Shown here in pieces: positions 32,185 through 32,535 of a DNA stretch of 32,535 nt (positions are counted from its first letter, which is position 1; each line of letters opens with the position of its first letter). The stretch lies in IMG/VR virus record IMGVR_UViG_2541047835_000006. One strand, written 5' to 3'. This DNA is from a virus. Its lineage: Duplodnaviria; Heunggongvirae; Uroviricota; Caudoviricetes. The position numbers and the translations under genes were made by a program. The notes beneath the pieces were generated by a model that was not told where the DNA came from, ran no database searches, and saw only the letters and a list, made by a program, of their open reading frames with translations.

Positions 32185-32250
32185 GGTCTCTTCCCATTTT
32201 GACCCAGTTCTTCCCATAAATATCTCACTTATTCCCTGTCATTTATCTCA
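32185..32250. repeat. Phased direct repeats next to putative prophage right end (candidate transposase binding sites)
   Basis: TCTTCCCAT at 32189..32197 and 32209..32217 (20-bp phase), related ATTCCCTGTCAT at 32231..32242; TATCTCA at 32221..32227 and 32244..32250. Confidence 0.35.
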
Positions 32251-32260
32251 AGTCTAATCA

Positions 32261-32535
32261 AGCGGCAGGCGCTGGTGCGTGAGTTAAACGAAGAACTGGG
32301 CATCGAAGCAACTGTTGGTGACTATGTTGCCAGCCATCAGCGAGAAGTTTCGGGGCGGATTATCCATCTTCATGCCTGGCACGTACCCGACTTCCACGGG
32401 ACGTTACAGGCACATGAACATCAGGCGCTGGTCTGGTGCTCACCTGAAGAGGCGCTGCGATATCCGCTGGCCCCTGCTGACATTCCATTATTAGAGGCGT
32501 TTATGGCTTCACGCGCCGCCAGACCAGCGGATTAG
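32261..32535 (+). pseudogene. nudG: 3' fragment of host Nudix hydrolase gene (nudG-like CTP pyrophosphohydrolase) interrupted by the prophage
   Basis: Translation RQALVRELNEELGIEATVGDYVASHQREV...PLLEAFMASRAARPAD matches the recalled C-terminal two-thirds of E. coli NudG from the REx2EE part of the Nudix box onward; in-frame sequence upstream of ~32260 (…YSLSFISSLIK) lacks the G-x5-E part of the box. Confidence 0.6.

Follow-up and report, generated by a model that had tools for sequence, protein, structure and literature searches.

A BcepMu-like transposable prophage has, we consider almost beyond doubt, inserted into the Escherichia coli gene nudG by rve-type transposition, with a 6-bp target duplication and the splitting of NudG. 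The window, by which we mean the whole 32,535-nt stretch of DNA analysed, holds about 32.3 kb of this prophage and, at its right-hand end, the 3' part of the interrupted gene. An earlier note on this DNA had proposed a transposition-type insertion, and that reading is upheld by 35 different host flanks, by 6-bp duplications and by an rve transposase accompanied by an AAA+ ATPase.

The two sides of the insertion in nudG

We searched window positions 32200-32535 against 5426 complete E. coli genomes with megablast. The match to nudG begins at base 62 of the query, which is window position 32261, and runs to the window end, covering 275 nt of the end of the gene, stop codon included, at 100% identity. 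The same stretch is present at 100% in ATCC 11775 and more than 1000 other complete E. coli genomes, and no match across the nudG/prophage junction was found in the 5426. The ATCC 11775 locus (L004, ynjE-ynjF-nudG-ynjH-gdhA) served as the intact reference. Since the base preceding the aligned stretch (L004:2501-2775) is C in the intact locus versus A in the window, host DNA starts exactly at 32261. The nudG start lies at L004:2368, 133 nt upstream of the break point, and the gene is broken after the first base of codon Q45. Past the junction the window translates in frame as ...RQALVRELNEELGIE..., beginning within the Nudix box and reaching a stop codon at the very window end; the fragment comprises residues 46-135 of 135, the C-terminal two-thirds of NudG that had been read there from about 32261.

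The end of the prophage, at 32260, was also placed from the phage side. When the window is aligned with copies inserted in speE, irp2 and elf, the sequence is invariant up to ...CAAGTCTAATCA (32260) and unrelated beyond. The element end is also defined INDEPENDENTLY: the mor end lies beside other genes in hundreds of E. coli chromosomes (search with 31900-32535). The same terminal 40 bp adjoins 35 distinct host flanks, counted over the speE, irp2 and elf copies, ten contexts from Mor-protein look-ups, two deposited phage records and further IMG/VR loci. Because these 35 flanks abut an identical end, the terminus is fixed independently of the nudG alignment and of the NudG protein sequence from which the earlier note had placed a junction at 32260/32261 and a final CA; alignment and terminus agree on both. 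The 162 bp before it, directly after the mor stop codon, hold no plausible gene and are invariant in other copies, as befits what had been described as non-coding phage-end DNA. The features at the junction are:

32099..32260, no strand: non-coding terminal region of the prophage, mor-proximal, ending ...TCTAATCA; invariant across independent insertions
32259..32260, no strand: terminal CA dinucleotide of the element (TG...CA termini), from terminus alignments (PMC2628397)
32261..32266, no strand: AGCGGC, right-hand copy of the 6-bp target duplication; the same hexamer ends the 5' nudG fragment beside the far terminus in locus L033
32261..32535, plus strand: host nudG 3' fragment, codon 45 bases 2-3 to stop, residues 46-135 (100% over 275 nt; L004 alignment; PRK10546.1)

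The lead to the far end was an exact variant of the window's tail protein I (504-1082, minus strand), found in only four contigs of the gene-position index, one of which is scaffold KE700901.1 (2.04 Mb) of NCBI assembly GCA_000459195.1. Window 1-8082 is the reverse complement of positions 1-8082 of the corresponding locus (L033) with 0 mismatches. The scaffold gap in L033, 2760 N long (8084-10843) and situated within the invertible tail-fibre region, opens a single base outside window position 1. A contig from an independent Logan assembly (SRR958401) stops at the identical base. Assignment of the window to KE700901.1 rests on the 8082 identical bases and this shared break. The break is in keeping with a tail-fibre segment that inverts (Gin-type) and so defeats assembly.

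Past the gap, L033 carries a Gin-like invertase (Pfam Resolvase+HTH_7) and then the phage terminus, beyond which, on the opposite strand, come a 59-aa NUDIX ORF, ynjF, ynjE and ynjD. About 3.5 kb beyond the window start, KE700901.1 thus has the order ynjE–ynjF–nudG 5'…GAAAGCCAGCGGC joined to TGATGCGCC…–invertase. The far junction reads ...GAGCCGGATGAAAGCC AGCGGC followed by TGATGCGCCGCGCGATAAATGCG..., and the phage terminus ...TGATGCGCC is preceded by ...GATGAAAGCCAGCGGC. The 59-aa ORF, MKMIEVVAAIIERDGKILLAQRPAHSDQAGLWEFAGGKVEPDESQR-LMRRAINASISVR and a stop, consists of NudG residues 1-46 and a continuation encoded by the phage end. The earlier note had named two tests, alignment with an uninterrupted nudG and a search for the 5' fragment at the other prophage end. 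The former gave the exact junction 32260/32261; the latter located the missing fragment in KE700901.1, beside ynjF and across the gap, and with it the target duplication AGCGGC. The outcome that the note had set as a refutation, no 5' fragment at the far end, therefore did not arise. The nudG halves thus flank the prophage on both sides, with AGCGGC as a direct repeat. The remaining weakness is that they are linked by scaffolding across the 2760 N rather than by one continuous sequence. Taking the gap at its estimated length, the prophage measures about 35.8 kb.

Duplications of 6 bp recur at other sites. In strain 2020S05-235 a complete 37.8-kb relative splits speE, with ATTACG at both junctions; an irp2 insertion (L002/L010, NZ_CP098203.1) has CTCAGG on both sides, and one in an elf fimbrial gene has AGCAGC on both sides. 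From these three of three we had predicted beforehand that the 5' nudG fragment would end ...GAAAGCCAGCGGC, followed by TGATGCGCC..., and L033 bore this out, so that the duplication is 6 bp in 4/4 insertions read at both ends (nudG, speE, irp2 and elf). Neither the right junction nor the predicted left one turned up in pattern scans of the viral_contigs, genome_contigs and metagenome_contigs collections, and an exact look-up of the predicted 59-aa NudG-phage fusion gave no match; the real fusion departs from the prediction at Q25H and at four residues of its read-through tail, which comes from the phage end. A 5-bp duplication, hinted at by a 46-aa look-up match, was rejected, the matches being Q47-stop alleles and contig ends.

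Target preference was read, over 35 loci, from the hexamer that follows the mor end. An NNNAGC bias among the first 16 flanks faded at 35 flanks to a faint, roughly palindromic N-Y-T-A-R-N preference (T at position 3 in 17/35, A at position 4 in 19/35, G at position 5 in 16/35), which the nudG target AGCGGC does not fit. Four unrelated contigs (L026-L029) end exactly at ...CAGCGGC, the same base as the predicted left junction; three have another nudG allele, with AGT in place of AGC, and the shared end of all four is likely to reflect graph branching at a nearby polymorphism. A disrupted irp2 (yersiniabactin synthetase HMWP2) is also annotated elsewhere: matches H2-H28 of the mor-end search, at least 27 complete genomes of human, canine and wastewater origin, show this annotation beside the mor end. 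This set looks like a successful lineage with a phage-broken siderophore gene.

Gene content, termini and relatives of the prophage

The following genes of the prophage bear on its classification and on the insertion:

31709..32098, plus strand: mor, late-transcription activator, last prophage gene before the terminus (Pfam Mor, E=1e-42; same position as BcepMu gene 1)
31246..31737, plus strand: gemA-like gene (Pfam GemA, E=8e-41)
26687..27892, plus strand: AAA+ (ExeA-like) transposition ATPase, counterpart of BcepMu gp08 (Pfam AAA_22; position of BcepMu08 'DNA transposition protein')
24946..26715, plus strand: DDE (rve) transposase, 589 aa, putative maker of the insertion (Pfam rve)
21588-22382, plus strand: D12-class N6-adenine DNA methyltransferase (Pfam E=1e-27), in a variable region between repressor and lysis genes

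Read inward from the mor end, the order is mor, gemA, DUF2786, gam, ATPase, transposase, DUF3102, HTH regulators and repressor, followed by the Dam methylase, holin, SLT endolysin, Mu-like head genes and P2-like tail genes. By Pfam, the transposase contains the rve integrase core only. The window ORFs scanned include no tyrosine or large-serine integrase, and the small invertase by the tail fibres is the sole recombinase encountered. The early and late ORFs compared have the same lengths as in the complete 37.8-kb relative, and many other copies share its termini exactly, for which reasons the prophage looks intact and recent.

The mor-proximal end carries several short elements:

32241..32249, minus strand: first terminal repeat (GAGATAAAT in the inward direction), at positions 12-20 counted from the end; candidate binding site for the transposase, same place in other ends
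32218..32226, minus strand: second terminal repeat (GAGATATTT in the inward direction), at positions 35-43 counted from the end; candidate binding site for the transposase, same place in other ends
32189-32197 and 32209-32217, no strand: TCTTCCCAT twice, 20 nt apart, just inside the terminal repeats; mor end only
32106..32150, plus strand: imperfect inverted repeat directly downstream of mor, its arms 16 nt long with 81% complementarity; candidate transcription stop

Read inward, the window end is TGATTAGACTTGAGATAAATGAC...GTGAGATATTTATGG and the other end of the phage family TGATGCGCCGCGCGATAAATGCA...GTGCGATAAATGG, while the BcepMu ends are TGAAGAGAGGTGAGATATTTCC...GCGCGATATTTCC and TGAAGCGCGGCGCGATATTTCAG...GCGCGATAAATTC. 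All four begin with TGA (positions 1-3) and carry the 9-mer GMGATAWWT twice, at 12-20 and 35-43, so that this phage family and both BcepMu ends share the architecture TGA-N8-GMGATAWWT-N14-GMGATAWWT. From this arrangement we infer that the transposase binds the GMGATAWWT repeats. The paired TCTTCCCAT copies, absent from the fibre-end sequences compared, may form an extra protein-binding site. A simple terminator scan called no terminator after mor, and Rfam returned no RNA family in the window.

These comparisons place the prophage, on sequence grounds, among the BcepMu-like transposable myoviruses rather than with Mu proper. Its transposase is 69% identical to those of BcepMu (gp09, annotated as a Tn552/IS1604-type rve transposase) and phiE255 over 98% of the length, and an ExeA-like AAA+ transposition protein adjoins the transposase in both phages. 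Gene order is colinear with BcepMu genes 1-52, in reverse orientation, and runs alike through mor, gemA ... gam, ATPase, transposase, repressor, lysis, head, P2-like tail and tail fibre; mor lies next to the terminus and the early genes read toward it in both. The ends are likewise TG...CA in both (here ...TCTAATCA at 32260 and TGATGCGCC... at the far end), and the phage KS10 paper (PMC2628397) gives such termini as characteristic of prophages akin to BcepMu whose transposase is of the Tn552-related rve kind. The two differ in host (E. coli versus Burkholderia), at the distal end (a Gin-like invertase and invertible tail-fibre region here, an acyltransferase in BcepMu) and in the distance from mor to the terminus (162 bp here, 364 bp in BcepMu). 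Their DNA is also far apart, megablast aligning only about 6% of the query at about 75%, confined to the sheath and tube genes; because of this low similarity, formal membership of Bcepmuvirus is uncertain. The target duplication made by BcepMu is probably 6 bp as well; our literature searches found no open-access statement of its length.

Closer relatives are known from Escherichia and Klebsiella. The transposases of the Escherichia phages PhiKM and Phi06_2974 B and of Klebsiella phage KP12 are 94-98% identical to the window's (98% for PhiKM), and these three phages, together with about 700 E. coli prophage copies, show 88-98% DNA identity over about 87% of the window, Phi06_2974 B being a close deposited relative at 97.7%. 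They and the chromosomal copies share the terminus to the last base. NCBI files PhiKM under Bcepmuvirus. The PhiKM record (L022, PQ738613.1), described as a partial genome, is a permuted assembly in which a host ABC-permease gene fragment (20200-20740) lies between the tail-fibre gene and the mor end. The family is common in E. coli: the 5426 complete genomes gave about 700 mor-end matches beyond nudG, and one family protein is listed in about 9900 index blocks. Chromosomal relatives occupy speE, irp2, elf, astB, the lacA/lacY region and others, none of them in nudG, and look-ups of the Mor and DUF2786 proteins likewise returned other insertion sites and no nudG site.

Transposition and the alternatives

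Bacteriophage Mu invites comparison. Like Mu, the window phage transposes at near-random sites, has TG...CA ends, Mor, GemA and Gam homologues and a Gin-type invertible tail-fibre segment, and mutates host genes by insertion, the property after which Mu is named. Those ends, the Mu-like Mor, GemA and Gam proteins (Pfam) and the random sites would also suit a true Mu-family (MuA/MuB) prophage with the 5-bp duplication that Mu makes. We judge such an identity very improbable: the transposase matches no Mu-transposase family and belongs with BcepMu gp09, the duplication is 6 bp wherever both ends were read, and the early region is inverted relative to Mu, reading outward to the near terminus with mor last, as in BcepMu; the P2-like tail module is a further departure. 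The earlier note, which had likened the CA end to Mu-type ends, is thus to be refined on two points: the phage is BcepMu-like, and its duplication is 6 bp instead of Mu's 5 bp.

Two other origins for the junction were weighed, and we give each next to no credence. One is that the junction is no chromosomal insertion but arose by chimeric assembly, or from host DNA packaged along with phage genomes. Transposable phages do package flanking host DNA, the window does begin at a contig break, and deposited records of the family (L022, L023) carry stray host DNA at the mor end. Neither version accounts for complementary halves of one gene on the two sides with a precise 6-bp duplication, or for the normal ynjE-ynjF-nudG synteny on the far side. 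The independent Logan contig from SRR958401, 142.6 kb long, carries the tail stretch of window 1-8082 and extends 134 kb further toward the junction. Alternatively, nudG could be the attachment site of a site-specific prophage, or the 3' fragment a separate or duplicated Nudix gene. All that speaks for this is the bare fact of a phage beside a gene fragment. A site-specific element would not be expected to show 35 different flanks for one terminus, this junction in 0/5426 complete E. coli genomes, and a transposase in the early region with no tyrosine or large-serine integrase among the ORFs scanned; a separate gene would not be 100% identical to the resident nudG and complete it exactly.

In the insertion that we favour, by a BcepMu-like transposable phage, the rve-type DDE transposase and its AAA+ partner would have joined the two TG...CA termini to cuts staggered by 6 bp inside nudG, the 3'-OH CA ends of the infecting phage genome being joined to the target phosphates. 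Gap repair would then have duplicated AGCGGC. Codon 45 is thereby severed behind its first base. Residues 1-44 and the duplicated codons, which belong to the 59-aa read-through ORF, adjoin the invertase/tail-fibre end as the 5' piece, some 3.5 kb to the left of the window; residues 46-135 form the 3' piece at 32261-32535, next to the mor end. With the Nudix box divided between the two pieces, no active NudG would be expected from the interrupted locus. DDE transposition of this kind is the best explanation of the insertion, by analogy with what is established for Mu and Tn552-type transposases.

Consequences for NudG

The Nudix box of NudG is laid out as G37-x5-E43-x7-R51-E52-x2-E55-E56. The insertion leaves G37-x5-E43 on the 5' fragment and R51E52..E55E56 on the 3' fragment in the window, the very split of the box that had been proposed. 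Against NCBIfam PRK10546.1, the equivalog model for NudG as pyrimidine (d)NTP diphosphatase, the window fragment covers positions 46-135 with 165 bits (cut-off 156), positions 1-45 being at the other prophage end. Intact NudG matches PDB 2RRK, a CTP pyrophosphohydrolase; compared with this E. coli protein (Orf135; 2RRK; PRK10546), the window fragment corresponds to residues 46-135 and lacks residues 1-45 including G-x5-E. Judged from its sequence, the nudG piece in the window is a pseudogene fragment, not a gene. We infer loss of function because neither piece holds a whole Nudix box or a whole fold, and NudG at the interrupted locus is almost certainly inactive, somewhat more firmly than the probable inactivation suggested earlier.

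An in-frame GTG at 32275 opens an 86-aa ORF in the nudG fragment, and an outward-facing promoter-like hexamer pair lies at 32151-32178 (two sites found by the promoter scan versus 0.8 expected). An 86-aa NudG remnant could, given this start and promoter-like pair, in principle be made; there is no reason to think it active. As a marker of disrupted nudG, this ORF was discarded as unspecific, being recorded at thousands of intact loci. The same internal-GTG ORF (32275-32535; L006-L009) is a gene-caller product at intact nudG in 5288 index blocks, and because it is called at intact loci, short 'NudG' calls often reflect a start-codon miscall and not truncation.

NudG is reported to be a pyrophosphohydrolase of 5-hydroxy-CTP and 2-OH-(d)ATP, which clears such oxidised or modified nucleotides, and to degrade ppGpp when over-expressed (PMC7593582). 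According to the title of Kamiya et al. 2003, as cited in PMC11460165, it suppresses spontaneous and H2O2-induced mutation; going by that title, nudG loss raises mutation modestly. In view of these reported roles in nucleotide clean-up and mutation suppression, a small mutator effect is possible in an isolate with a split nudG.

Other broken forms of nudG were encountered. Two Logan assemblies have a CAG-to-TAG stop at codon 47 (L024, L025, around 6139-6141), 44-aa truncated forms occur on 24-48 contigs, Shigella included (among P0004-P0006), and there is a 43-aa fusion (...FAGGVMLPTY, WP_001735329.1), which suggests another insertion, after codon 37. These stop alleles, truncated forms and fusion, seen besides the phage insertion, led us to consider whether selection in E. 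coli and Shigella has put nudG out of action repeatedly, the present case being then no chance event, an idea that we hold to be unlikely. If true, some lineages might benefit from losing this sanitiser of the nucleotide pool, also a minor (p)ppGpp hydrolase (PMC7593582), for example through a mild mutator or an altered stringent-response phenotype.

The nudG insertion is otherwise already-known biology, an ordinary insertional disruption by a known kind of phage, such disruption of host genes being the defining behaviour of transposable phages. The nudG site was not seen in any other genome searched, as near-random insertion predicts. The significance is small beyond correct annotation, to which the base-exact termini and the 6-bp duplication rule contribute by helping automatic annotation to set the boundaries of this prophage family. 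The isolate itself would appear to be a nudG knockout of natural origin, the work of a BcepMu-like transposable phage common in E. coli.
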